A stretch of 64,000 nucleotides of DNA from Candidatus Micrarchaeia archaeon (GTDB lineage: Archaea > Micrarchaeota > Micrarchaeia > Micrarchaeales > CABMGC01). The stretch lies in NCBI GenBank assembly GCA_049976305.1, contig JBMFIM010000001.1, forward strand, positions 25,712 to 89,711, read 5' to 3'. Positions within the stretch are counted from its first letter, which is position 1. Each line of letters starts with the position of its first letter. Below are positions 1-60,458 of the stretch, piece after piece. A model generated the notes under the pieces. It saw nothing but the letters and a program-made list of their open reading frames with translations, made no database searches and was not told where the DNA came from. A program made the translations under genes and the position numbers.

Positions 1-1035
1 GCCACCTGTACCTAATTTAAGAACAGGTATGGGCAAAGGAACAGGCATGCCTGCCTTTTTCAGCCTTTCCAAAGCGATATAGTCAAACGGCGCGTGGGCT
101 GGCACGCTCATCACTATCCCTGTGCCCAGATCAGGCTTCACGAAGAAGCCGTGGTACACTGGGACCTTTACTCCATTCACTGGGTTTATGCACTGCTTTT
201 CTATGAGCTCCTGCCCGCTAAGCTCTTTCAACACACTTATCTTTAGCTGGAAGCCCAAAATGTAGCTTGCCTCTTTGGAGATATAGAAGCTTCTTTCGTC
301 TTCGCCAATTTTGCAAAGCACGTACTGGCTATCTCTGTTGACAAAAATATTGGTTACACCGAATACCGTCTCAGGCCTGTAGGTAGCACAGAGCATATAT
401 GCATCTTCTCCATCAACCTTGAACGCTATCGCCACCTCTTCCTCGATCTCCGGCTCGACATCATGCAAGGTGTCGTGCATTCCAACAGGGTTATTTTCAT
501 TAGGGCACCAGCCGACTGCATGCTTTCCTTGGACAAGAAGATGCTTGTCGTTGAGTATTCCGAACTGCCACTCTACAAACTTGCTGAAGAAGGGTTCTGT
601 AGAAACAAACTTCCTCCTGAAGTCTATGCTTAGGCCAGACCTCACAAAGCTTGCCTCGCTGTTTTTGGTGAAGTATTCTGTTATGTAAACAGGGTCTGTC
701 ATCTTTGCAATGTCTTCATCAGGAATATGGAAAAGTTTGAGCTCTTTTATAATTTCCTGGTCGTTGTTTTTTATGCGCTTTGCAAATGCAAGCACAGGAG
801 TTCCGGTAGCGTGGAAGCCCATAGGGAAAAGAACGTTGTATCCTTGCATGCGCTTGTACCTTGCCAGTGCGTCAGTAATGCTGTATGTTCGCAAGTGGCC
901 GATGTGCAAAGGTGTGTTGACATAAGGAAATGCTGCAAAAACCATATAGGCTGGCTTGTCGTTCGGCTCTACCTCAAATATCTTTGCTTCTTGCCAATTC
1001 TTTTGCCATTTTTTCTCTATGCCTGCAAAGTCCGT
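1..1035 (-). CDS. leuS: Leucyl-tRNA synthetase, archaeal type, N-terminal ~345 codons (gene continues past left edge)
   Basis: The minus-strand frame is open from 1059 to the window edge and is absent from the ORF track because it is truncated. My translation gives ...DFAGIEKKWQKNWQEAKIFEV..AFPYVNTPLHIGHLRTYSITDALARYKRMQGYNVLFPMGFHATGTP..RPETVFGVTN..MSVPAHAPFDY, which shows the class I HIGH motif and archaeal LeuRS blocks. I set the start at ACG 1035..1033 (see finding). The first ATG is at 945..943. Confidence 0.9.
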
Positions 1036-1081
1036 AAAACCACTAGAAAGAAAATGCCGTTAAAGATTAATAAAGCAAACG

Positions 1082-1155
1082 TGGAGCCAGGAAGGGGAGT
1101 CGAACCCCTCTTTGCCGCTCTGCAGGCGGCCGCATAGCCGATCTGCCATCCTGGC
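1082..1155 (-). tRNA. tRNA-Cys (GCA), CCA encoded
   Basis: Minus strand folds as GCCAGGA-TG-GCA-GATCGGCTA-TGC-G-GCCGC-CTGCAGA-GCGGC-AAAG-AGGGG-TTCGACT-CCCCT-TCCTGGC-T-CCA. It has a 7-bp acceptor stem, anticodon GCA, U73 discriminator and a genomic CCA. Confidence 0.9.
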
Positions 1156-23975: not shown

Positions 23976-23983
23976 ATAAGTTC

Positions 23984-24806
23984 ATGCTCGCTCCGATTCA
24001 ATATATCTTTGCAATTATTTCTGGAGTGATTGTTGGATTTTCGCTAGGCTTAATAGGAGGAGGCGGATCTATTCTCGCAGTTCCCTCTTTCTTTACTTTG
24101 TGGGCTTAGATCAATGCCAGACGCTGTACATATTGTTGTTGGCACTACTGCACTTGCAGTGGGAATAAATGCCTATATTAATTCCTATATGCATTTGAGA
24201 AAAAAGAATGTGGCAATAAGAGTAGGTGGCCTGTTTGCAATAATTGGCATTTTTGGCTCCTTGCTGGGCGCGTATCTGGGAAGAATAACTCCTGGCACAG
24301 ACTTGCTTACTTACTTTGCAATCAGCATGATAGTGCTAGGCATTTATATGACTCTAAGAAAAGAGCCTACATTTACAGGAACCAAGGAGGAAGCATTGAG
24401 ACTAAGAAAAGCTACACAAAAATACCCAAAGCTGAATGCAAAGAGTGCGGCTAAGGTAAGCGCATTGGGATTTATTGTAGGCGTGGTTAGCGGATATTTT
24501 GGAATAGGAGGTGGCTTCTTAATAGTACCTTCGCTGATGTTTTCTTCTGGGCTGTGCATAACAAGGGCCATAGGCACCAGCTTAATAAGCGTTGGTAGCT
24601 TTGGAGTTGCTAGCGGTCTAGAATATGCTGCATTTGGAGATGTTCTTTTCATGGTTTCTCTCCTTTATATCGTTGGAGGAGTAGGCGGCGGCTATCTTGG
24701 AACTTCGCTAGCTGTAAAGGCGCCTAAGAAAGCCTTGCGAATAGCATATGGAATAATTATTGTACTTGTTGGAATTTACATTCTTTTCAAGGTCGGTGTA
24801 TTCTGA
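23984..24806 (+). pseudogene. TauE/SafE (DUF81) family anion exporter, reading frame broken once (+1) near 24100
   Basis: The ATG at 23984 gives ..GFSLGLIGGGGSILAVPSFFTLWA then a stop at 24107-24109. The rest (..GLRSMPDAVHIVVGTTALAV.. to 24806) is in the +1 frame (track ORF 24114..24806). Together the two parts form one normal-length TauE protein. Confidence 0.65.
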
Positions 24807-24854: not shown

Positions 24855-25691
24855 CTATTCGACAAGCGCAAAAACATCTTTTCTGTTTTCGGTCACATCG
24901 CCCTGCTCAGCCAACAGGTAGAGCGTCCCTCTTATCGCTTCCTCATCCTGATGCAACAGGGTTGCAAGCTCACTCACTTTCTTGGGCCCGTTCTTTAGCT
25001 GCTTGACTAGTTCAGTTCCAAGCTTGTCAAAAAACGACTTCATGAATATGTAGTACTTTTTGTTGAACGCCCTTGTACCTATAACTTGGCCCTGCCTTAT
25101 GCTTTCAGACACCGCCATTGACAAAGCGGCAGCTTCAGCCTCTGTAGGCAAAACAACATACCCTTTGCTCTCCAGCGCTTTTACATTCTCGTTTTCTATG
25201 CCGGGCTTCACTTTAAGCAACGTCGGCTCGACTTCCCCCCATGCACGAGCCTGGTCTATCTCCTCCTTCTCCTTTGGCTTTTTCCTCAACAAGAAGGTAT
25301 CGTAAACATGCTTTGAAATGCTGTAAAGCTTCTCCTTCCTCTTTTCATCGTTGTATAGCACTACTGCTTTCTTAGCGATTAGACTTGACAAAACCTTCTT
25401 TTCGCTCTCGTTAAGCAAGCCCGCTACCCTTTGCTCGGTTCTTGAAGGATATCTAATAGTATCTAACTTTTTGAGAACGTCAAGTTCTTCTTTTGTGAAT
25501 TCTCCGGGCTCTGCAGATGGCTGACTAGAGGAGAGCAGTGACACTACATCTTCCTTCTTTGCAAACAAAAATGCGTTATCGCTAAACTTGAAAAAATCAA
25601 CCTCGTCGTTTTGGTTAAGGTGAAGTTGCGCGACAACATCATAGGGGATGTAGATTAAGTATTTGTTATCCTTTTTGTAGACCTTTACCGT
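24855..25691 (-). CDS. Putative DNA-binding protein: AbrB/SpoVT-like N-terminus and C-terminal winged helix
   Basis: The track ORF is 24855..25568 with a TTG start. The frame stays open to 25703 and encodes TVKVYKKDNKYLIYIPYDVVAQLHLNQNDEVDFFKFSDNAF, which looks like a swapped-hairpin domain. GGGTG + 5 nt precedes the in-frame ACG at 25691. The C-terminus GPKKVSELATLLHQDEEAIRGTLYLLAEQG is wHTH-like. Confidence 0.55.
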   Translation of the reverse strand, partial: TVKVYKKDNKYLIYIPYDVVAQLHLNQNDEVDFFKFSDNAFLFAKKEDVVSLLSSSQPSAEPGEFTKEELDVLKKLDTIRYPSRTEQRVAGLLNESEKKVLSSLIAKKAVVLYNDEKRKEKLYSISKHVYDTFLLRKKPKEKEEIDQARAWGEVEPTLLKVKPGIENENVKALESKGYVVLPTEAEAAALSMAVSESIRQGQVIGTRAFNKKYYIFMKSFFDKLGTELVKQLKNGPKKVSELATLLHQDEEAIRGTLYLLAEQGDVTENRKDVFALVE

Positions 25692-25701
25692 ATGGACACC
25701 C

Positions 25702-25709
25702 TTTTAAAA
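25702..25709 (+). promoter_or_regulatory. TATA-box-like element for nnr (leaderless start at 25730)
   Basis: TTTTAAAA is centred about 25 nt upstream of the ATG at 25730. Confidence 0.3.
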
Positions 25710-25729: not shown

Positions 25730-27262
25730 TGTATGCAAGACTTAAAATGGTTTTCTAAATTCACAAAACAGACGCTTAGTTCAGAAGAAATGAAAGTAGT
25801 GGAACTTAATGCTGAGAATCTGGGAATTACTGAGTTGCAAATGATGGAAAGCGCAGGCAAAGCAGTGGCAGACTTCGTAGAACAGCATTTTAAAGACAGG
25901 AAAAACCTACTTGTGCTATGCGGCAGCGGCAATAATGGTGGCGATGGCTTTGTAACTGCGAGATACCTTAGCAAAAACCATAATGTTGTAGTTGGGATCG
26001 CTGGTGGTAGGGAGAAGATAAAAGGGGCTTCTTCCCTTATAAACCTGAAAGCGCTCGAAGCTTGCGGAGTGGAACTAGTAGAAAATGTAGAATATGAACT
26101 TAGAACGCGGCTTGACCATGCAGACTTAGTAGTTGACGCTTTGGTAGGGACAGGATTCCACGGTTCGCTGAGAAGCCCTCTAAAAGAGATAGCTAGAATG
26201 TTAAACAATTCGAAAAAAGAGGTAGTGGCGATAGACCTTCCATCTGGGCTCGACGCCACAACTGGATATGAGAAAGAAGCGGTAAAGGCTACATATACAG
26301 TAACATTCCATAAAATGAAAGAAGGCCTGCTAAAATCTAAAAAGGCAGGGAAGATTGTTTGCTCAGATATAGGAATACCGCTAAAGGCTGAAGTTTTTAC
26401 CGGACCTGGAGATCTGTGGAGGGCAGTACCAAAGAAAGAGCTGTTTGATAATAAACTTAGCCATGGACGAGTCCTAATATTAGGAGGCAGTGAAGAGTTT
26501 TACGGCGCGCCTTCAATGGCTGCGATTGCTGCGTACAACGCGCTTGCTACTTTAAGGTCTGGTGCTGGCTATGTCGTATTAATGGTACCTAACTCTATTC
26601 TGAAAGTTGCTAGAGAAGTGTCTCCCAACTTAATAGTAAGAGCTGCAGGAGAAGACTATATTACAAACCTAAAAGCCATAAAACAAGAGATAGACAAAAG
26701 CAGCGTAATAGGAATTGGAATGGGAATAGGGCGTAGCATAGAGGTTCTTGAAGCCACAAAAGAAATCATAAAATACGCACTTGATAAAAACAAAAGGCTT
26801 GTAATAGATGCGGATGCACTCTACGCCTTGGGAAGAAGCCCCTTAAACAAGAATGCCGTACTCACTCCTCAGGAAAAGGAGTTTGAAACTCTTTATGGAA
26901 GAAAGCCTGAGGCAGAGATTGATAAAAGGGTAAGACAAGCAATCAAACTTGCCAACACATTAAATGCAGTAGTTGCATTGAAGGGTCATATTACTGTAAT
27001 AACCGATGGAAAGCAAGTAAAGCTTAATGAGACAGAAACTGCTGCACTGGCGACCATGGGAACCGGAGATGTGTTAACAGGTATTATTGCAGGTTTTGCA
27101 ACTAATAACGCTCAATCAATGTTCAACATTACAGCAGGAGCCATATATCTCCATGGAAGAATTGGAGATGTATTAGCAAAAGAGAAAGGGACGCACATAC
27201 TAGCTAGTGATCTTATAGATCAAATTCCACTCATAGCTGCGCAATATAGTGCTGTGGTTTGA
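25730..27262 (+). CDS. nnr: Bifunctional NAD(P)H-hydrate repair enzyme Nnr (YjeF_N epimerase + ADP-dependent dehydratase)
   Basis: The N-domain has LMESAG..CGSGNNGGDGFV. The C-domain has GGSEEFYGAP...GTGDVLTGIIAGF. The ORF opens at 25709, and ATG 25730 fits the TATA spacing. Confidence 0.9.
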   Translation, partial: CMQDLKWFSKFTKQTLSSEEMKVVELNAENLGITELQMMESAGKAVADFVEQHFKDRKNLLVLCGSGNNGGDGFVTARYLSKNHNVVVGIAGGREKIKGASSLINLKALEACGVELVENVEYELRTRLDHADLVVDALVGTGFHGSLRSPLKEIARMLNNSKKEVVAIDLPSGLDATTGYEKEAVKATYTVTFHKMKEGLLKSKKAGKIVCSDIGIPLKAEVFTGPGDLWRAVPKKELFDNKLSHGRVLILGGSEEFYGAPSMAAIAAYNALATLRSGAGYVVLMVPNSILKVAREVSPNLIVRAAGEDYITNLKAIKQEIDKSSVIGIGMGIGRSIEVLEATKEIIKYALDKNKRLVIDADALYALGRSPLNKNAVLTPQEKEFETLYGRKPEAEIDKRVRQAIKLANTLNAVVALKGHITVITDGKQVKLNETETAALATMGTGDVLTGIIAGFATNNAQSMFNITAGAIYLHGRIGDVLAKEKGTHILASDLIDQIPLIAAQYSAVV

Positions 27263-29148
27263 TGACTGCCCCTATTGCTTTAATGAAAACAGCATTCGTT
27301 GCGAGTCTAAAGAAGGCAATAGAAACTGCATTCAAAAGTCTTGAGGTAGAAGCGCTTAAAATCGAAGATACAATACTTATACCTGAAGAGGGATTCGGTG
27401 ATTTGAGCACATCTGTGTCTTTTAAGATTAGCAAAATAGTAAAAAGAAAACCCAGTGAGATAGCTAAAGAGATTATTGAAAAAATGGGAAAGCCTTCTTT
27501 CGCTAGTAAGCTAGAAGAAGCAAATGGTTACATAAACCTGTTTTTCAATGAAAGAGAGTATGCAAAGCTAGTCATAGAAACAGTAATTGAAGAAGGCGAT
27601 TTTTATGGCTCTGCTAACATAGGAGAAGACAAAAAGGTGCTTGTTGAGTATCCAAGTGTCAACCCAACAAAGCCTTGGCATATAGGCCACCTTAGAAATG
27701 CTCTCCTTGGCGATTCGATTGCTAACTTGCTAGAATTTTGCGGCTACAAGGTAGAAAGAGAAGACTATATAGACGACTTAGGCTTGCAAGTAGCTGAAAC
27801 GCTATGGGGAATAAAGCACTTAGGAAGCAGTCCAAAAGGCATGAAGTTTGACAGATTTCTCGGAGAACAGTATGTAGATGTAAATAAGAGGCTTTCAGAA
27901 AACCCAGAAGTTGAAAAGGAAATCGGCGAAATATTAAAGAAGATGGAAGCTGGCAACACCGAAGAGGCTCGAATGGCGAGAGAAGTGTCTGAGAGATGCG
28001 TAAGGGCGCAGTACCAGACCGCATATTCATATGGCCTTTACCATGACGTTCTTATATGGGAAAGCGATATTGTAAAAAGCAAGCTCCTAGATAAAGCCAA
28101 AATACTTGCGCAGGAAAAAGGGGTCATAGAAAACATTAACGAAGGAAAGTACAAGGGCTGCATTGTACTCGATTTGGAAAAGGTGAAAGGCGTTGCAAAG
28201 GAGTTTGAAAACCCGAAAGAAAAATACAAGGTGCTTATCAGAAGCAATGGTGTTGCAACGTACGCAATGAAGGATTTCGCATTCCACTTATGGAAGTTCG
28301 GCGAAATAAAGGCAGAGATAACCTTTGAACTTTTTGACAAACAGCCAAACGGAAAGCAGCTATATAGCAGCTCGCCAAATGGCAAATATATGGAATTTGG
28401 CAATGCAGATATGGTAATAAACATAATTGACAGAAGCCAGAGCCACGAACAGGCTTCAGTAAAGGCGCTGCTATCGCTTGTGGCCAGTGGCAACAAGCAA
28501 CTTATTCACCTTCCATATGGGGTCGTAAGGCTAGCTAGTGGCACATTAAGTGGGAGGCGAGGAGGCTGGCTTGGCGAGCGAGAATATACCGCTGACGAAT
28601 TACTCAAAGAAGCGACAATTAAAACTTTGGAGAAAACAAAAGAAAGCAGTAAGCTTGCACAAGGTGAGGTTGAAAAAACTGCAAAGGAAGTTGCGCTAGC
28701 GGCTATAAAATTTGAGTATTTGCGTGTTTCTCCTGAAAAGGACATTGTGTTCGATTGGGAAAGGGCTCTAAATCTTGAGGCGAATAGTGGGCCATATGTT
28801 CTTTATACTTATGCAAGGGCCAGCAGCATACTGGAAAAGGGCGGCTTTGAGCTAATGCCACCGAATGGAAAGGCTTATGAGTTTCTTACTAGGGAAGAAG
28901 ATTACGAGCTTGTAAAGCATATCGCCGTATTTCCAGAAGTAGTAGAAAGAGCATGCAAGGAATTGAAACCAAACCTTATTACAAACTACCTAATCGATAT
29001 TGCAACAATATTTAGCAAATTCTATGAGAAGATGCCAGTAATCAAGAGCGAAGCCAGGGAGTTAAGGCTCTCACTGGTATATGCAACCAAACAAGTTATA
29101 AAAAACGGCCTTGCCCTTCTCGGAGTACACGCCTTAGAAGCCCTTTAA
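27262..29148 (+). CDS. argS: Arginyl-tRNA synthetase
   Basis: It carries VEYPSVNPTKPWHIGHLRNALLGDSIANLL (HIGH) and an anticodon-binding C-terminus. GTGG + 4 nt precedes the ATG at 27262, which overlaps the nnr stop. Confidence 0.93.
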   Translation: MTAPIALMKTAFVASLKKAIETAFKSLEVEALKIEDTILIPEEGFGDLSTSVSFKISKIVKRKPSEIAKEIIEKMGKPSFASKLEEANGYINLFFNEREYAKLVIETVIEEGDFYGSANIGEDKKVLVEYPSVNPTKPWHIGHLRNALLGDSIANLLEFCGYKVEREDYIDDLGLQVAETLWGIKHLGSSPKGMKFDRFLGEQYVDVNKRLSENPEVEKEIGEILKKMEAGNTEEARMAREVSERCVRAQYQTAYSYGLYHDVLIWESDIVKSKLLDKAKILAQEKGVIENINEGKYKGCIVLDLEKVKGVAKEFENPKEKYKVLIRSNGVATYAMKDFAFHLWKFGEIKAEITFELFDKQPNGKQLYSSSPNGKYMEFGNADMVINIIDRSQSHEQASVKALLSLVASGNKQLIHLPYGVVRLASGTLSGRRGGWLGEREYTADELLKEATIKTLEKTKESSKLAQGEVEKTAKEVALAAIKFEYLRVSPEKDIVFDWERALNLEANSGPYVLYTYARASSILEKGGFELMPPNGKAYEFLTREEDYELVKHIAVFPEVVERACKELKPNLITNYLIDIATIFSKFYEKMPVIKSEARELRLSLVYATKQVIKNGLALLGVHALEAL

Positions 29149-30098: not shown

Positions 30099-30193
30099 GG
30101 GCCCGTAGCTCAGCTTGGACAGAGCGGCGCCGTCCTAAGGCGAAGGCCGTGGGTTCAAAATAAGCTTGGCTTATGACAATCCCACCGGGCCCG
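30099..30193 (+). tRNA. tRNA-Arg (CCU) with a 20-nt intron in the T-loop (59/60; intron 30160..30179)
   Basis: It folds as GGGCCCG-TA-GCTC-AGCTTGGACA-GAGC-G-GCGCC-GTCCTAA-GGCGA-AGGCC-GTGGG-TTCAAA[ATAAGCTTGGCTTATGACAA]T-CCCAC-CGGGCCC-G. Removing 20 nt gives a standard 75-nt cloverleaf. The insert folds as a bulge-helix-bulge (see finding). Position 32 is G and 27:43 is G.A. Confidence 0.8.
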
Positions 30194-30204
30194 ATGGCGA
30201 TAAG

Positions 30205-31218
30205 ATGACAAAAGCCGAAGAACCTAAAGAACCTAAGGTAGTAGTAAAGCCTGTAGGCGGGCTTGGCGGCTTAGACCAGATTCACGTAGCGTTAATAATA
30301 CTAGTTTGTGTGCTAGTGGCGCTTGTTGTTGTGCTGGCATACTACAGGCCTACAGCAATTACTGTAGTAAACAACACTACAGCAGCTAAACCCATGCACA
30401 CTTCCTCGGAAATGCTAAATCTTACAGAAAGGTTGCTTGCAAGCTATAACAATCTCAACTCCTCACTAAACCTTCTGCCGTATATAACCAACATCAGCGC
30501 TGCTAACATAACCTACATATCGAGCATTAAATCGTGGCTCATAAGGGTTCCTGCAGCAAATCCAGCAACAAACGTTTCTTTCTACGTTACCTTTTTGATA
30601 AATGACTCCAATACATCAAAAGTGCTGCCACTTATACAGACGGTGCTGCCCGCAAAACTTTCACAAAACAAAGTAGTGGCAAAGGGAGTGGTTCAATTAT
30701 ACAACCATTATCCGTGCAACAAGCAGCCTATGCCGGTTTATTGGTTTATAGATCCATATGCACCCGGTGGCATAAAGAGCTTAAACTATGCAGTACAACT
30801 GCAGAATATGCTAAAGGGCAAAGTCAATGTGACAATAAAGATATTCAGCACGCAGGCGACACAGGCAATAGCAAGCCAGTATGGCATAGCAAATGCGCAG
30901 CTTCTAGGCAAGTACATATTCTGTGCTTCGCTTCAGCCAAATTTTGAAAAGTTTGCAAACATTTTGAGCTCTCTGTTTGCAGGCTCTTTCATGGGCCAGA
31001 TAGAGCTCAGCAACATAGCCAACGAATCTGGGCTCAATTATTCTGAATTAAGCTCTTGTATAGGCACCTCTCAACCAATAATCAACAATCAGGCTCTTCT
31101 AGCAAGCTACTACAACATTACTCAAGTGCCAAGCGTTATCGTTGACTGCAACCTTATGACTTTGCCTCAGACCGCTTACGATGCTGTCTGCTTTGCAAAT
31201 AGCACACTTTGCAGGTGA
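30205..31218 (+). CDS. Membrane-anchored extracellular DsbA/thioredoxin-like-fold protein lacking the CxxC site
   Basis: The track start TTG 30166 overlaps the tRNA, so I use ATG 30205 (MTKAEEPKEPK). One TM helix is followed by about 12 sequons. MPVYWFIDPYAPGG...GKYIFCASLQ...NITQVPSVIV follows the DsbA-like (Thioredoxin_4) pattern, with APGG where CPxC is expected. Confidence 0.45.
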   Translation: MTKAEEPKEPKVVVKPVGGLGGLDQIHVALIILVCVLVALVVVLAYYRPTAITVVNNTTAAKPMHTSSEMLNLTERLLASYNNLNSSLNLLPYITNISAANITYISSIKSWLIRVPAANPATNVSFYVTFLINDSNTSKVLPLIQTVLPAKLSQNKVVAKGVVQLYNHYPCNKQPMPVYWFIDPYAPGGIKSLNYAVQLQNMLKGKVNVTIKIFSTQATQAIASQYGIANAQLLGKYIFCASLQPNFEKFANILSSLFAGSFMGQIELSNIANESGLNYSELSSCIGTSQPIINNQALLASYYNITQVPSVIVDCNLMTLPQTAYDAVCFANSTLCR

Positions 31219-31222
31219 ATTC

Positions 31223-31693
31223 ATACACATCATTGTAGGAATAGATGGCGGTAAGACTGCTGCGATAGCGTGCATAGACTTATACGGCAGGCCAATCAGG
31301 CTTTTCACAGGAAGATATGTGGGCTTGAGCTGGTTCGTCAATATGATAAGAGAGGTTGGCGAGCCGGTAATAATAGCGAGCGACAAAAAGAAGCCGGATG
31401 AAATTGTAAAGAAGCTTGGTGCTGTTTTTGGAGCTGTGGTATTTTCACCTCAAGAGGATCTTACAGTAGATAAGAAGGAGGAACTGGCTAATCACGCATT
31501 TGAAAACCTTCATGAAAGAGATGCCCTTGCCGCAGCTAAGGCCGCTTACAATGCATATGCTAACAAGCTAAAGCAGGCAAGCAAGAAAGCAATAGAACAT
31601 GGCATTGAAGCGGATAAGGCAATGACTTTGGTGATTGAGCGATACTCAATGCACGAAGCAATTACCGGGAAAAAGGCAAACAGGAAAAAATAG
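31223..31693 (+). CDS. DUF460 / COG2433 RNase H-fold (RuvC/YqgF-like) putative nuclease, short form
   Basis: It carries HIIVGIDGGKTAAIACIDLYGRP...VIIASDKKKP...HERDALAAAKAAY. The track start ATG 31181 adds 14 aa and overlaps the upstream gene by 38 nt. AGGTGA + 4 nt precedes the in-frame ATA at 31223 (see finding). Confidence 0.6.
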   Translation: MHIIVGIDGGKTAAIACIDLYGRPIRLFTGRYVGLSWFVNMIREVGEPVIIASDKKKPDEIVKKLGAVFGAVVFSPQEDLTVDKKEELANHAFENLHERDALAAAKAAYNAYANKLKQASKKAIEHGIEADKAMTLVIERYSMHEAITGKKANRKK

Positions 31694-34828: not shown

Positions 34829-35224
34829 CTAATCGGGCTCGAACTTGTATTGGTAATAAATAAGGCCTTCGTCTCCTTCTTTGTATATGCGCCTTAGCAC
34901 CGCCCTTACCCTTGTGCCAATCTGCACTGGCTTGCCATTGTCAACAATATGCCCTTCCACGATCGGTCCTTCGTCTAGCTTTATCAGCGCAACGGTGTAT
35001 GGAGCTAAGTCCTCAAAGCCGTCTGGAGGCGAGCGAATTATTGTATATGAGTAAATTTCGCCAGTTCCTTTGAACCTTAGGTCTTTCATCTTTGAGTTTC
35101 TGCCGCAATTCCTGCACACTAGCCTTGGCGGAAAGTATTTTGCCCCGCAATTTTCGCACATATTGCCCAGGAGTATGTACCTAGACCTTACTTTTCTCCA
35201 CAAATCAGCAGGAGACTTTTCCAT
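34829..35224 (-). CDS. DUF35 OB-fold/zinc-ribbon protein (scaffold of the archaeal thiolase/HMG-CoA synthase complex)
   Basis: It has CENCGAKYFPPRLVCRNCGR and an OB-fold C-terminus. AGTGG + TTTT precedes the ATG. Confidence 0.85.
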   Translation of the reverse strand: MEKSPADLWRKVRSRYILLGNMCENCGAKYFPPRLVCRNCGRNSKMKDLRFKGTGEIYSYTIIRSPPDGFEDLAPYTVALIKLDEGPIVEGHIVDNGKPVQIGTRVRAVLRRIYKEGDEGLIYYQYKFEPD

Positions 35225-35231
35225 AAAACCA

Positions 35232-36395
35232 CTAATTTACGCGCTTAAGTATGTGCACAACGGCAGTTGCACCGCTACCGCCGACGTTGTGTGTGAGCCC
35301 AATTTCTGCGCCATCTACTTGCCTACCTTCAGCCTCTCCCCTTAGCTGCCAAGTAATCTCAACCGCCTGCTTTATTCCTGTAGCACCTACAGGATGCCCG
35401 CAACCTTTAAGTCCGCCGCTGGTGTTGACAGAAACATCGCCGTTTATTGCGGTTCTGCCTTCTTCTATGGCTTTTGCCGCCTCGCCTTTTTTGAAAAAGC
35501 CTAGGTCTTCCATTGCAATTATCTCCGCTATAGTAAAACAGTCATGAACCTCTGCCACGTCTATGTCCTTTGGCGTTACCTTTGCATGCTCATACGCCTT
35601 CTGGCTTGCGATCCTTGCTGCCTTTATGCTGGTAAGGCTCTCTCTGTCTGCCAGCCTCAGGGTATCGCTTGCCTGCTCGCTTGCTGCTATCAGTACCGGC
35701 GTATCGTTGTATTTCTTTGCAACCTCCATCGGAGCCAGCACTATTGCGGCTGCACCATCGGTAATTGGCGAGCAGTCAAGAAGTTTCAGAGGGTCTGCAA
35801 CCATCTTTGAATTGAGCACATCATCTATCGTTATGCGCCTGTGGAACTGGGCGTATTTGTTGTGGTAGGCGTTTTCATGATTCTTTACTGCTACTGCTGC
35901 CATTTGCTCCTCAGTAGTACCGTATTCGTGCATATGCCGCCTTGCCATGAGGGCATACAGGCCTGGGAATGTTAGACCTTGGAAGAGCTCCCATTCTTGA
36001 TCCCCAGCTCCGCCTAGTGCAGTTGTGGCTTCGCCTGTGCTTACATCTGTCATTTTCTCAACTCCGCCTACAACCACTATGTCATGGAGGCCGCTGGCGA
36101 CCGCCATGTAGCCTTGCCTGAGTGCCGTACCGCCGCTGGCACACGCATTCTCAACACGCGTAGCAGGTATGTTGCCAAGGCCGAGCTGATCAGCCATAAG
36201 CGCTGCAACGTGCTCTTGACCTATGAATCTGCCTGGTGTCATACTGCCACCATAGATGGCATCAATATCCTTGCTGGATATGCCTGCATCTTCCAAGGCT
36301 GCAAGTCCGGCTTCAGCCATAAGCTCCTTTATTCCTGATTCCCATCTTTCACCAAACTTTGTAAGACCAACGCCTATAATTGCCACATCTCTCAT
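35232..36395 (-). CDS. Acetyl-CoA acetyltransferase (thiolase)
   Basis: [11 protein letters not shown] contains the active-site Cys. The C-terminus has [24 protein letters not shown]. Confidence 0.92.
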
Positions 36396-50429: not shown

Positions 50430-50504
50430 AGCGAGGTGGGGTAGTTTGGAGTACCCGCTGGGCTCATAACCCAGAGATCGGTGGTTCAAATCCACCCCTC
50501 GCTA
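50430..50504 (+). tRNA. Initiator tRNA-Met (CAU)
   Basis: It folds as AGCGAGG-TG-GGGT-AGTTTGGAGT-ACCC-G-CTGGG-CTCATAA-CCCAG-AGATC-GGTGG-TTCAAAT-CCACC-CCTCGCT-A. The A1:U72 pair and three G:C pairs closing the anticodon stem are archaeal initiator features. Confidence 0.85.
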
Positions 50505-52024: not shown

Positions 52025-52363
52025 CTATCTTATTTTGCTCCCCGGCCTGACTTCTTTGTTTGGCGTAAGTAAAGATATTATTCCATCATCCTCAGCAGCA
52101 AGCAGCATACCTTGCGATTCTACACCAGCAACATTCTTTGGCTTAAGGTTTGCGACGCAAACAATAAGCTTGCCAACAAGCTCTTCTTCACCATATTGCT
52201 CTCTTATTCCAGCGACTATCGTTCTTGTTCCAAGCTCTTCACCAAGGTCTACTGTAATTATGTACATCGGCTTCTTTGCCTGGTGATGAGGCTCAACCTT
52301 TACAATCTTGCCAACCCGCAGGTCTGCCTTTTTAAATTCTTCTATGTCAATAATGTCAGTTAT
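52025..52363 (-). CDS. tRNA-binding OB-fold protein (Trbp111/CsaA/EMAP-II-like)
   Basis: The track ORF (52025..52267) starts at MYIITVDLGEE. The same frame upstream encodes TDIIDIEEFKKADLRVGKIVKVEPHHQAKKP, which is the conserved first strands of the domain. There is no ATG/GTG/TTG in that stretch. AGGTGG + TTTT precedes the in-frame ATA at 52363 (see finding). Confidence 0.75.
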   Translation of the reverse strand: MTDIIDIEEFKKADLRVGKIVKVEPHHQAKKPMYIITVDLGEELGTRTIVAGIREQYGEEELVGKLIVCVANLKPKNVAGVESQGMLLAAEDDGIISLLTPNKEVRPGSKIR

Positions 52364-52387
52364 AAAACCACCTAATATGTGTTATTC

Positions 52388-59161: not shown

Positions 59162-59772
59162 ACAATCATCCTTATGTCTACGACTTCATAGTCTTTTTCT
59201 CTGATAAACACAGGATTAAGGTCTATCTCTTTTATGTTGCTTTTTTCAAAAAGCCTGGAAAACTTCATTAGCAGGTTTACTACCATGTTTGTGGCTTTGC
59301 CGCCGTGTGTAATTATGTCTTTTGCCTTAAGCTGATTTATCATCTCCATTGCATCATAGCGCGTAATAGGGCAAAGCCTCAGGGCAGTATCTTTGAATAT
59401 CTCTACATATATGCCTCCAAGCCCTATGAGAACTACCTTTCCGAATTGGTTATCTGTATTGCCTCCCAGTATCGCCTCGACGCCACCGCTGCTCATTTTC
59501 TGCGCGAGTATTTTGTAAGGAGCATAGGGCTTTGCATTTTCAGAAAGCCTGCTGAAGGCTTCCCTTATGGCCTTTTCAGAATCCAAGTTCAGCATCACCA
59601 AGCCAGCCTTTGATTTGTGTAGTGCTTTGTCAGAAAGCGCTTTCAAGGCAATTGCGTTACCGTTGGCAAAGGCTATTGCCTCATCTGGCGTTTTTACATA
59701 CTCGGCATCAACGCTTTTTATGCCAAATTTATCAAGCAATGCTTTTGCTTTGAAATATTCTAAGAGCGTCAA
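59158..59772 (-). CDS. acdB: Acetyl-CoA synthetase (ADP-forming), beta (ATP-grasp) subunit
   Basis: It carries LLEYFKAKALLDKFGIKSV...ALKALSDKALHKSKAGLV. The start is ambiguous between TTG 59772 and ACG 59769 (see finding). Confidence 0.82.
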   Translation of the reverse strand: MTLLEYFKAKALLDKFGIKSVDAEYVKTPDEAIAFANGNAIALKALSDKALHKSKAGLVMLNLDSEKAIREAFSRLSENAKPYAPYKILAQKMSSGGVEAILGGNTDNQFGKVVLIGLGGIYVEIFKDTALRLCPITRYDAMEMINQLKAKDIITHGGKATNMVVNLLMKFSRLFEKSNIKEIDLNPVFIREKDYEVVDIRMIV

Positions 59773-59777
59773 ACCAC

Positions 59778-60458
59778 CTATATAATATGCTTAGCGGCCA
59801 ATACTGCAAGGAGGACTATTATTAAGATGACGATTAAAATCACAAGACCTATGACGCCTTTCTTGCTATTACCTTTCTTCATCCCCAGCGCCTGTTGAAT
59901 TTCAATTTCATTTTGTACCTCCTGCCCTAAGCCGCTTTCTGCTCTCGTTTGAGCCTGAGGTTGTGCTTGTTGCGTTGGCTGCTGTGCCTTTGTTTTTTCT
60001 TTAGCTCTGAGAAATCCTTGTTCTGTCAGCAGCAATTCCACATTGCCATTTTTAAGCTCATAATTCAGCAAGTTCTGCTTGTACAGCTTATAGAGCCTAA
60101 AGGCAAGGTCTCTAGGCACTATGTTTAGTGCAGTCTGCAACTCTGAGGGTATGCGTTTTCCTCCGGATAGCTGAAACAGTATTTCTTCATCAAGGCTATC
60201 AAGTGGCTCTCCTGCCTTTGCATCAAGTTCGCTAAGCAGCGCCTTTGCGGAATCAGTAAGTTGCATAGCGGTAGGTCCAGGAAATCCTGAAGAAAAGTCT
60301 ACAAGCCCCTTCTGCTTAAGGGTTCCAGCAAGGTTTGCAGCGTCGAAAACGCTGGCATTTATCAAACTTCCGAACTTCTCAAGTGTAGTGTCAGGAGTTA
60401 TTCTCAAAAGGCACGCAACATCCAAAAAGCTTATGTTGGTGTTCGCATCAGCAGCCAT
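59778..60458 (-). CDS. Hypothetical tail-anchored membrane protein
   Basis: The 226 aa comprise a soluble helical domain, a Q-rich linker and a single C-terminal TM helix (VIGLVILIVILIIVLLAVLAA). Confidence 0.45.
   Translation of the reverse strand: MAADANTNISFLDVACLLRITPDTTLEKFGSLINASVFDAANLAGTLKQKGLVDFSSGFPGPTAMQLTDSAKALLSELDAKAGEPLDSLDEEILFQLSGGKRIPSELQTALNIVPRDLAFRLYKLYKQNLLNYELKNGNVELLLTEQGFLRAKEKTKAQQPTQQAQPQAQTRAESGLGQEVQNEIEIQQALGMKKGNSKKGVIGLVILIVILIIVLLAVLAAKHII

Follow-up and report, generated by a model that had tools for sequence, protein, structure and literature searches.

The stretch of DNA considered here (the window) spans 64,000 nt of a Candidatus Micrarchaeia archaeon (GCA_049976305.1, contig JBMFIM010000001.1, positions 25,712 to 89,711 of the forward strand), a tiny symbiotic Micrarchaeaceae archaeon within the Micrarchaeota (DPANN), and its left edge cuts through leuS, the gene for an archaeal leucyl-tRNA synthetase (LeuRS). 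The nearest homologues of the encoded LeuRS fragment are Micrarchaeota sequences. The 5′ part of leuS lies on the minus strand (1..1035), and the gene comprises 939 codons when counted from an ACG at 1033..1035, the codon at which we propose that its translation begins. Upstream of this in-frame ACG, and likewise on the minus strand, lie a 4-nt spacer, TTTT (1036..1039), a Shine-Dalgarno (SD)-like AGTGG (1040..1044), a TAA (1060..1062) that shuts the leuS frame, a TATA-like TTTATTAA (1067..1074) that is the probable leuS promoter, and a tRNA-Cys(GCA) gene (1082..1155) identified by tRNA and Rfam scans. Three further minus-strand codons compete for the role of start: an in-frame ATA (1018..1020), which encodes the Ile of GIEKKW; the first canonical in-frame start, an ATG (943..945) that abuts the Rossmann-fold strand and the HIGH motif; and an out-of-frame GTG (1043..1041), itself the core of the SD, which opens a 9-codon open reading frame (ORF) ending at TAG 1019..1017 (1017..1043).

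The codons that follow TAA 1062..1060 are CGG CAT TTT CTT TCT AGT GGT TTT ACG GAC TTT GCA GGC ATA GAG AAA AAA TGG, exactly as an earlier note on this DNA had listed them, and no ATG, GTG, or TTG occurs in frame before ATG 945..943, 30 codons past the ACG. A start-free run of 38 codons is by itself unremarkable (P ~0.13). The notable point is that this gap spans the conserved N-terminus of the protein and that its upstream end is shut by a stop codon and a tRNA gene; with tRNA-Cys directly upstream, there is no space for an N-terminal extension of leuS. The segment DFAGIEKKWQKNWQEAKIFE, which includes DFAGIEKKWQ and lies upstream of ATG 945, corresponds to the conserved N-terminal helix of archaeal LeuRS. 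The Pyrococcus N-terminus that the note had cited proved correct: in P. horikoshii LeuRS (1WKB/1WZ2), N5 of MAELNFKAIEEKWQ pairs with the window D, and the alignment begins at that residue 5 (MAEL-NFKAIEEKWQ). The NCBIfam PRK12300 alignment likewise opens at profile position 5 on the same D, such that the NCBIfam and PDB alignments extend to within 1–5 residues of the ACG.

The gene is an intact archaeal LeuRS of class Ia and not a pseudogene. Three further assemblies were available for comparison, namely, L175 (NCBI GCA_049972015.1), L176 (JGI 3300039096), and L001 (from bin KMA_Bin06). Translated from the ACG, leuS of L175 yields 939 residues without internal stops, scoring 1061 bits against PRK12300 (cut-off 677) and 875 bits against TIGR00395 (cut-off 648.5; profile positions 3–936 of 938). 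The HIGH and KMSKS signatures are present in the translation as PLHIGH and EKMSKS, and the LeuRS editing domain PF13603 (CP1) is matched in the window leuS. We read leuS as an essential gene that has lost its canonical start codon.

The loss is not an artefact of sequencing or assembly. L175 and L176 each differ from the window by 1 mismatch over 493 nt, while L001 is ~9% diverged at the DNA level (~91% identity; 357 mismatches over 4 kb), and all three carry CTAGTGGTTTTACGGACTTTGC exactly and share AGTGGTTTT-ACG with the window; we therefore rule out such an error, the four assemblies being in agreement despite the ~9% divergence of one. The divergence of L001 is itself informative. Its leuS differs from that of the window at 96 sites distributed 87/8/1 over codon positions 3/1/2, that is, with 25% divergence at third positions and only 9 of the 96 differences at first and second positions combined. 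Between the ACG and ATG 945 (1024..946) all seven differences (7/7) fall at third codon positions, and the 30 codons upstream of ATG 945 are hence translated in the leuS frame and, by the same comparison, under purifying selection. Furthermore, the 46 nt from the tRNA gene to the ACG (1036 to 1081) show 0 differences from L001, as opposed to 7–14% in adjacent intergenic regions. As for its source, KMA_Bin06 contains two leuS loci, L001 (98% identical to the window) and L002 (77%), on contigs with 17.7x and 6.5x coverage, respectively; the 2.7-fold lower coverage of the L002 contig argues for a mixed bin and against a paralogue, and the bin is probably a mix of two Micrarchaeota populations.

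The starts of related leuS genes converge on the same place. The earlier note had proposed an alignment of leuS 5′ regions to show whether ACG is conserved or replaced by ATG. Across 83 Micrarchaeota leuS loci, collected by scanning genome contigs and metagenomes, a canonical start lies 1–7 codons ahead of the conserved [DN][YF] codon in 82, most often at −2 (M-I-D-Y; 55 loci) or −1 (M-D-Y; 22 loci), and otherwise at −4 (three loci), −3 (one), or −7 (one). The ACG thus coincides with the Met of 22/83 loci and sits one codon downstream of the start in 55/83. The sole locus of the 83 without a canonical start is L001, the close relative of the window; the loss is accordingly recent and lineage-specific, with the ACG kept in L001, L175, and L176. 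A metagenome scan for nearer relatives by which to polarise the change returned best matches of at most 73% identity, all of them with canonical starts. Separately, the leuS of L013, a metagenome-assembled genome of a hot-spring Micrarchaeaceae archaeon, reads GGTGT-TCGC-ATA-ATA-GAC-TAC (at 1171): an ATA stands at the SD-spaced, consensus M-I-D-Y position, and the nearest canonical ATG, 5 codons upstream, would make the SD coding.

A rigid ribosome-binding geometry singles out the ACG. In a survey of all long ORFs of the window, two classes of starts emerged: leaderless starts with a TATA box 28–31 nt upstream, and starts preceded by GGTG[A/G/T] and exactly 4 nt. Near ORF 5′ ends, GGTG[AGT] leads to a canonical start in frame in 15 of 28 cases when the spacer is 4 nt, compared to 0–2 for each of the other spacers from 0 to 10; no spacing but 4 nt marks canonical starts in this way. 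The leuS element AGTGG is one mismatch from this consensus, and the ACG is the sole in-frame codon upstream of the conserved N-terminus that has the geometry (aGTGG-TTTT). Using an assumed 16S rRNA 3′ tail, GAUCACCUCC, in place of the rRNA gene that the window does not include, the predicted SD/anti-SD duplex (6 bp) amounts to −4.9 kcal/mol for ACG 1035, compared to −2.1 for ATA 1020 and +0.1 for ATG 945. The 9 nt AGTGGTTTT at 1044..1036 recur at 35233..35225 before the ATG (35224) of a DUF35/ChsH2-type gene, in agreement with the earlier note, and this second copy (35222..35233 with its ATG, minus strand) presents the same ribosome-binding site as leuS with a start that is certain. The 9-mer identity alone is weak evidence (2 matches vs 0.7 expected; 16/100 shuffles reach 2). 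The broader pattern GTGGTTTN followed by A[T/C][G/A] occurs 5 times in the window vs 0.34 expected, a count that 0/100 shuffles reach, and all 5 occurrences lie at gene 5′ ends. Relaxing the SD scan to NGTGN added only noise from spurious ORFs.

The promoter geometry suggests a short leader. Judged by eye from upstream sequences, the TATA box lies 37–47 nt before the start in other SD-led genes and 28–31 nt before it in leaderless genes. From these distances, the TATA-like box of leuS would place the transcript start near 1044 (1044/1043) and leave a 5′ untranslated region of ~9 nt. The only start-like codon near this predicted transcript start is the out-of-frame GTG. An Rfam scan at the gathering threshold returned tRNAs only and no known RNA family in the leuS 5′ region, and the predicted fold of 1081..985 is unexceptional (z = −0.40; 68/200 shuffles fold at least equally well).

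The leuS ACG does not stand by itself. The earlier note had described a recurring pattern of SD-spaced ACG and ATA starts and cited four other sites, of which 25691 and 52363 are robust, 31223 is well supported, and 59769 is ambiguous. The first two lack any canonical alternative, and their positions are confirmed by orthologues. At 25689..25700 (minus strand), GGTGT-CCAT-ACG(-GTA-AAG) opens a gene for an AbrB-like and winged helix-turn-helix protein, whose first canonical start lies 44 codons further in, where its use would delete the AbrB-like domain; ATG-bearing orthologues begin MVKVFKKDNKY at the very codon of ACG 25691. Six lineages, namely, the window and five others, share the GGTGT-NNNN-ACG arrangement with differing spacers (CCAT in L169, TCGT in L170/171, TTAA in L172, TTCA in L173, and TTGC in L174). 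In L172, the spacer itself contains an in-frame TAA that directly abuts the ACG (GGTGT-TTAA-ACG), and the start therefore cannot lie upstream. ACG makes up just 14% of the Thr codons of the genome, yet it is invariant at this start among the lineages that carry it, which interleave with ATG lineages in a neighbour-joining tree.

The second robust case, GGTGG-TTTT-ATA (52361..52372, minus strand; ATA 52363), opens a gene for a tRNA-binding protein (CsaA/MetRS-beta-like). Its sole canonical start lies inside the PF01588 domain, and positions 2–111 of NF007494 align beginning two residues past the ATA. Three lineages share the SD-spaced ATA, namely, the window, L164/165 (GGTGG-TTTT-ATA), and L166–168 (GGTGA-TTTA-ATA), while L162/163 have TGTGG-TTGT-ATG with the ATG at the same codon. 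At the well-supported third site, GGTGA-ATTC-ATA (31214..31225, plus strand; ATA 31223), the SD includes the TGA stop of the upstream ORF and the ATA probably begins a DUF460-like gene: stand-alone homologues have their N-terminus (MHLIVGID) at this codon, and none of those inspected extends over the 14 residues encoded after an upstream ATG (31181). In the window the DUF460-like domain forms a separate 156-residue ORF after the upstream one (30205..31693 for the two, plus strand), while in many homologues of ~620–690 residues it occupies residues ~240–400; the arrangement resembles a split gene whose parts are translationally coupled. The fourth site, in an ATP-grasp gene (ADP-forming acetyl-CoA synthetase beta-like), reads GGTGG-TTTG-ACG (59767..59778, minus strand), and although the ACG is at the SD-spaced position, a TTG only 1 nt after the SD leaves the call for 59769 ambiguous. 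A parallel with ATG in place of ACG, GTGGTTTG-ATG, lies at 27254..27264 (plus strand); it belongs to argS, which the ORF list starts at TTG 27259 and for which the SD geometry (GTGGT-TTG-ATG) favours ATG 27262. A further ACG start may exist in the TrkA_N-domain gene of a relative (L164 at 13075; L165 at 5048), where GGTGG-TAGC-ACG precedes the called ATG by 10 codons and is itself preceded by no canonical start.

Taken with the translated upstream codons, the starts of relatives, and the SD geometry, the use of ACG in other genes supports the proposal of the earlier note that initiation occurs at ACG 1035..1033, and we consider this likely on comparative grounds. Mechanistically, translation would begin on a short-leadered mRNA, in which the SD-like AGUGG(U), 4 nt upstream, would pair with the 3′ end of 16S rRNA and hold the ACG in the P site. 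The standard initiator Met-tRNA (anticodon CAU) would then read the codon despite one mismatch at its middle position, the accepted mismatches being A35·C for ACG and C34·A for AUA. The product would begin Met-Asp-Phe-Ala-Gly-Ile-Glu, presumably with Met as its first residue. This reading would make leuS one instance of a clade-wide habit, whereby ACG and AUA serve as conserved starts exactly 4 nt after GGUG[A/G/U]. An unusual initiator tRNA was ruled out: the initiator tRNA-Met of the window (50430..50504, plus strand) is a textbook archaeal one, with A1:U72, G29–31:C39–41, and the anticodon CAU, and mismatch-tolerant initiation is therefore the simplest mechanism.

On balance, we favour, with less assurance than the leuS start itself, a wider proposition: that this Micrarchaeaceae clade routinely starts genes with ACG and AUA at a rigid GGUG[A/G/U] plus 4 nt, in perhaps ~5–8% of genes including an essential aminoacyl-tRNA synthetase, and that these starts have been long retained and are interleaved with ATG orthologues. 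Of the three codons that a single transition makes from ATG, only GTG is canonical; ACG and ATA are not. Fixation of these two fits drift, or mutational decay, tolerated in small symbiont populations, and their long-term retention suggests that they are at least not strongly deleterious. A near-cognate codon may even have a second use. The complement of ATA 52363..52361 forms positions 2–4 of TTATAAAA (52360..52367), the TATA box of the leaderless LigT gene, 28 nt ahead of its ATG (52388), and an ATA-to-ATG change would weaken this box to TCATAAAA; L164 and L166/167 retain the overlap, and L162/163, which have ATG, do not. The overlap may constitute a dual constraint that preserves the non-canonical ATA; for the leuS ACG, no second role of this kind was found. 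Together with the invariant ACG of the AbrB-like gene, the overlap suggests that the near-cognate state could be kept by selection.

Several observations weigh against initiation at the leuS ACG and against the wider habit. The leuS SD carries its one mismatch rather than the full GGTG[AGT], and a transcript start near 1044, as deduced from the TATA position, would set this SD at the extreme 5′ end of the mRNA. The leuS ACG is found in only two diverged lineages, and its conservation as a codon is not statistically significant. In simple counts within the window, ACG occurs 2 times at spacer 4 vs 0 at in-phase control spacers, while ATA occurs 2 times vs 1–2, not a significant excess. Nor is the spacing phylum-wide. 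In 82 other Micrarchaeota loci (508 kb), the geometry itself is weak: GGTG[AGT] plus 4 nt precedes canonical starts in 24 of 87 cases, ACG in 2, and ATA in 0, and the signal is thus a trait of a subclade and not of the phylum. Our case for near-cognate starts is built on the comparison of orthologues and not on counts. Finally, ACG in E. coli is among the codons that initiate at ~0.1–1% of the AUG level (bioRxiv 10.1101/063800); for an essential synthetase this efficiency would be low, barring a more permissive machinery in the host.

The strongest competitor, itself improbable in our estimation, is a start at ATA 1020..1018, another near-cognate codon 5 codons further in, which would yield a 934-residue LeuRS beginning M-E-K-K-W-Q. 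The gene call of the Prokaryotic Genome Annotation Pipeline (PGAP) in L175 (3374..6178) begins at the equivalent of this codon, which tells against the ACG; translation table 11 admits ATA as a rare start, and genes elsewhere in the window begin with it; and the 9-codon ORF from GTG 1043 to TAG 1017 ends in an AUAG that overlaps the ATA, making termination-reinitiation conceivable. PGAP is unable to call ACG, however, so that its rules, not evidence, dictated this choice. The ATA is without an SD at the needed spacing, as its weaker duplex energy reflects (−2.1 vs −4.9 kcal/mol for ACG), whereas all other near-cognate starts documented here have GGTGN plus 4 nt. The aligned codon is internal in leuS loci with canonical starts upstream, where it is mostly ATA too, and a start at this position would lose the conserved [DN][YF] pair, retained as D-F in the window.

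Less probable again is that the genomic ACG is turned to AUG in the mRNA by C-to-U editing, restoring a canonical start at the RNA level. The position and conservation of the ACG would fit this equally well, and such restoration of ACG starts is well known in chloroplasts and plant mitochondria. The parallel ATA starts, however, are not repairable by C-to-U editing and would call for a second, A-to-I system, and archaea are not known to have an mRNA-editing system. The window shows no candidate editing factor, although no search aimed at one was made.

We give a very slim chance to the possibility that translation starts at the out-of-frame GTG 1043..1041, perhaps leaderless, and reaches the leuS frame by a −1 frameshift on GUU UUA, or that the run of four T is really five. 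The 31 nt from the TATA box to the GTG match, by eye, the distance of the leaderless genes in the window; one extra T would give M-V-F-T-D-F-A-G, an N-terminus of the same length as in L003, L005, and L006 (ATG + 3 codons + [DN]F); and frameshift lesions do exist elsewhere in the window, in a TauE gene. Against these points, the T4 run is the same in all four assemblies, including the ~9% diverged one, and the G GUU UUA at 1041..1035 is not an X XXY YYZ slippery heptamer, re-pairing of the P-site tRNA there incurring a second-position mismatch. No stimulatory structure was found after the GTG (fold z = −0.4), and the codon was rejected as a route for frameshifting or reinitiation given the absence of both a slippery site and a stable structure. 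Moreover, every SD of the genome includes a GTG, and where the same 9-mer recurs, at 35233..35225, the ATG after it is in frame; some 1-nt indel can bring any out-of-frame codon into frame; and the other near-cognate cases have no frameshift option.

An equally slim chance attaches to a LeuRS that starts at ATG 945 and is truncated at its N-terminus, or to this copy decaying while another leuS serves the cell, for although the gene call of the Joint Genome Institute (JGI) begins at that ATG (909 residues; L176 3449..6178) and KMA_Bin06 has a second leuS (L002, 77% identity), the 30 upstream codons show the 7/7 third-position signature of purifying selection, the ATG has no SD (+0.1 kcal/mol), a start there would remove the conserved N-terminal helix and begin inside the first Rossmann-fold strand beside HIGH, the gene is intact over 939 codons, and the lower coverage of the L002 contig suggests a mixed bin. 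The predicted N-termini differ accordingly: (M)DFAGIEK from the ACG and (M)EKK... from ATA 1020, with MVFAAFPYVNTPLHIGHLR as a further alternative peptide.

Initiation at near-cognate codons has precedents in other systems, against which the proposed ACG and ATA starts can be set. Eukaryotes use it, for instance, at the ACG starts of adeno-associated virus (AAV) VP2 and Sendai virus C′. There, as in the mechanism proposed here, the initiator Met-tRNA accepts a codon one mismatch from AUG. The proposed archaeal codons would differ in being placed by an SD duplex and a fixed 4-nt spacer instead of scanning and a Kozak context, and in being the sole starts of housekeeping genes, unlike the alternative isoform starts of AAV VP2 and Sendai virus C′. 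The rare bacterial starts (AUU of infC; AUA, AUC, AUU, and CUG of table 11) offer a closer parallel as SD-led codons with one mismatch; unlike these, ACG is outside the table 11 list, and here it is conserved over deeply diverged lineages at defined genes. Plant organelles also place a genomic ACG at a conserved initiator Met position, but the co-occurring ATA starts of the window are not explicable by their C-to-U editing.

Archaeal initiation employs a subset of the eukaryotic factor set (aIF1, aIF1A, aIF2, and aIF5B) on mRNAs that are leaderless or SD-led (PMC11698992). When all 64 codons were measured in E. coli, green fluorescent protein initiated from ACG carried an N-terminal Met (bioRxiv 10.1101/063800). 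In the archaeon Haloferax volcanii, ~30% of the putative alternative initiation sites identified by ribosome profiling with harringtonine were near-cognate; these alternative or internal sites were set aside as possible false positives (PMC7261190). In contrast, the near-cognate codon is here the only possible start and is backed by comparative genomics. Our search of the literature on start codons in Micrarchaeota, DPANN, ARMAN, and archaea found no description of ACG or AUA starts in Micrarchaeota or DPANN.

These starts have practical consequences for annotation. The public annotations of leuS disagree with each other, PGAP choosing ATA 1020 and the JGI ATG 945; both choices are without an SD, and ACG is a start that both pipelines are unable to call. 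In the gene for the tRNA-binding protein (P0121), the ATA selected by PGAP precedes the SD-spaced ATA by 5 codons. Prodigal-type callers and PGAP, which do not accept ACG, cut genes short (to 909 or 934 residues for leuS, 237 for the AbrB-like protein, and 89–98 for the tRNA-binding protein) and stretch others to unrelated upstream ATGs, and such miscalled starts distort the protein families, domain inventories, and completeness estimates of DPANN genomes. If our reading is true, prokaryotes would have in ACG a start codon that translation table 11 does not list, and start-codon proofreading by aIF1, aIF2, and the ribosome would be measurably relaxed or re-tuned in this clade. Archaeal initiation brings eukaryote-like factors to bacteria-like mRNAs, and the clade, in tolerating or selecting a middle-position mismatch (ACG) at the only start of an essential gene, would offer a natural system in which to study the trade-off between aIF1/aIF2 fidelity and SD anchoring.

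A few features elsewhere in the window merit mention. The AbrB-like ACG 25691 (minus strand) and a YjeF/Nnr ATG at 25709 (plus strand) are divergent starts that lie 17 nt from each other and flank a palindromic TTTTAAAA (25701..25708), and the true YjeF start may be the ATG at 25733, leaderless and 32 nt after the box. A tRNA-Arg(CCU) gene at 30099..30193 (plus strand) bears an intron of ~18–20 nt inside its T-loop, GTGGG TTCAAA[ATAAGCTTGGCTTATGAC]AATCCCAC; it is missed on the native sequence by ARAGORN (also with -i) and by Rfam at the gathering threshold, and ARAGORN calls tRNA-Arg(cct) after removal of 18–22 nt. The TTG start of the ORF at 30166..31218 overlaps this tRNA gene, so that the true start of the ORF is probably the ATG at ~30205. 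Finally, the TauE/SafE exporter gene (~23982..24806, plus strand) carries two 1-nt deletions 33 nt apart when compared to intact 274-residue orthologues (L169, L170, and L171), which place its first 42 codons, the following 11, and the last 230 (from ATG 24114) in three different frames; by this comparison, the gene in the window strain is a pseudogene or encodes a truncated product.

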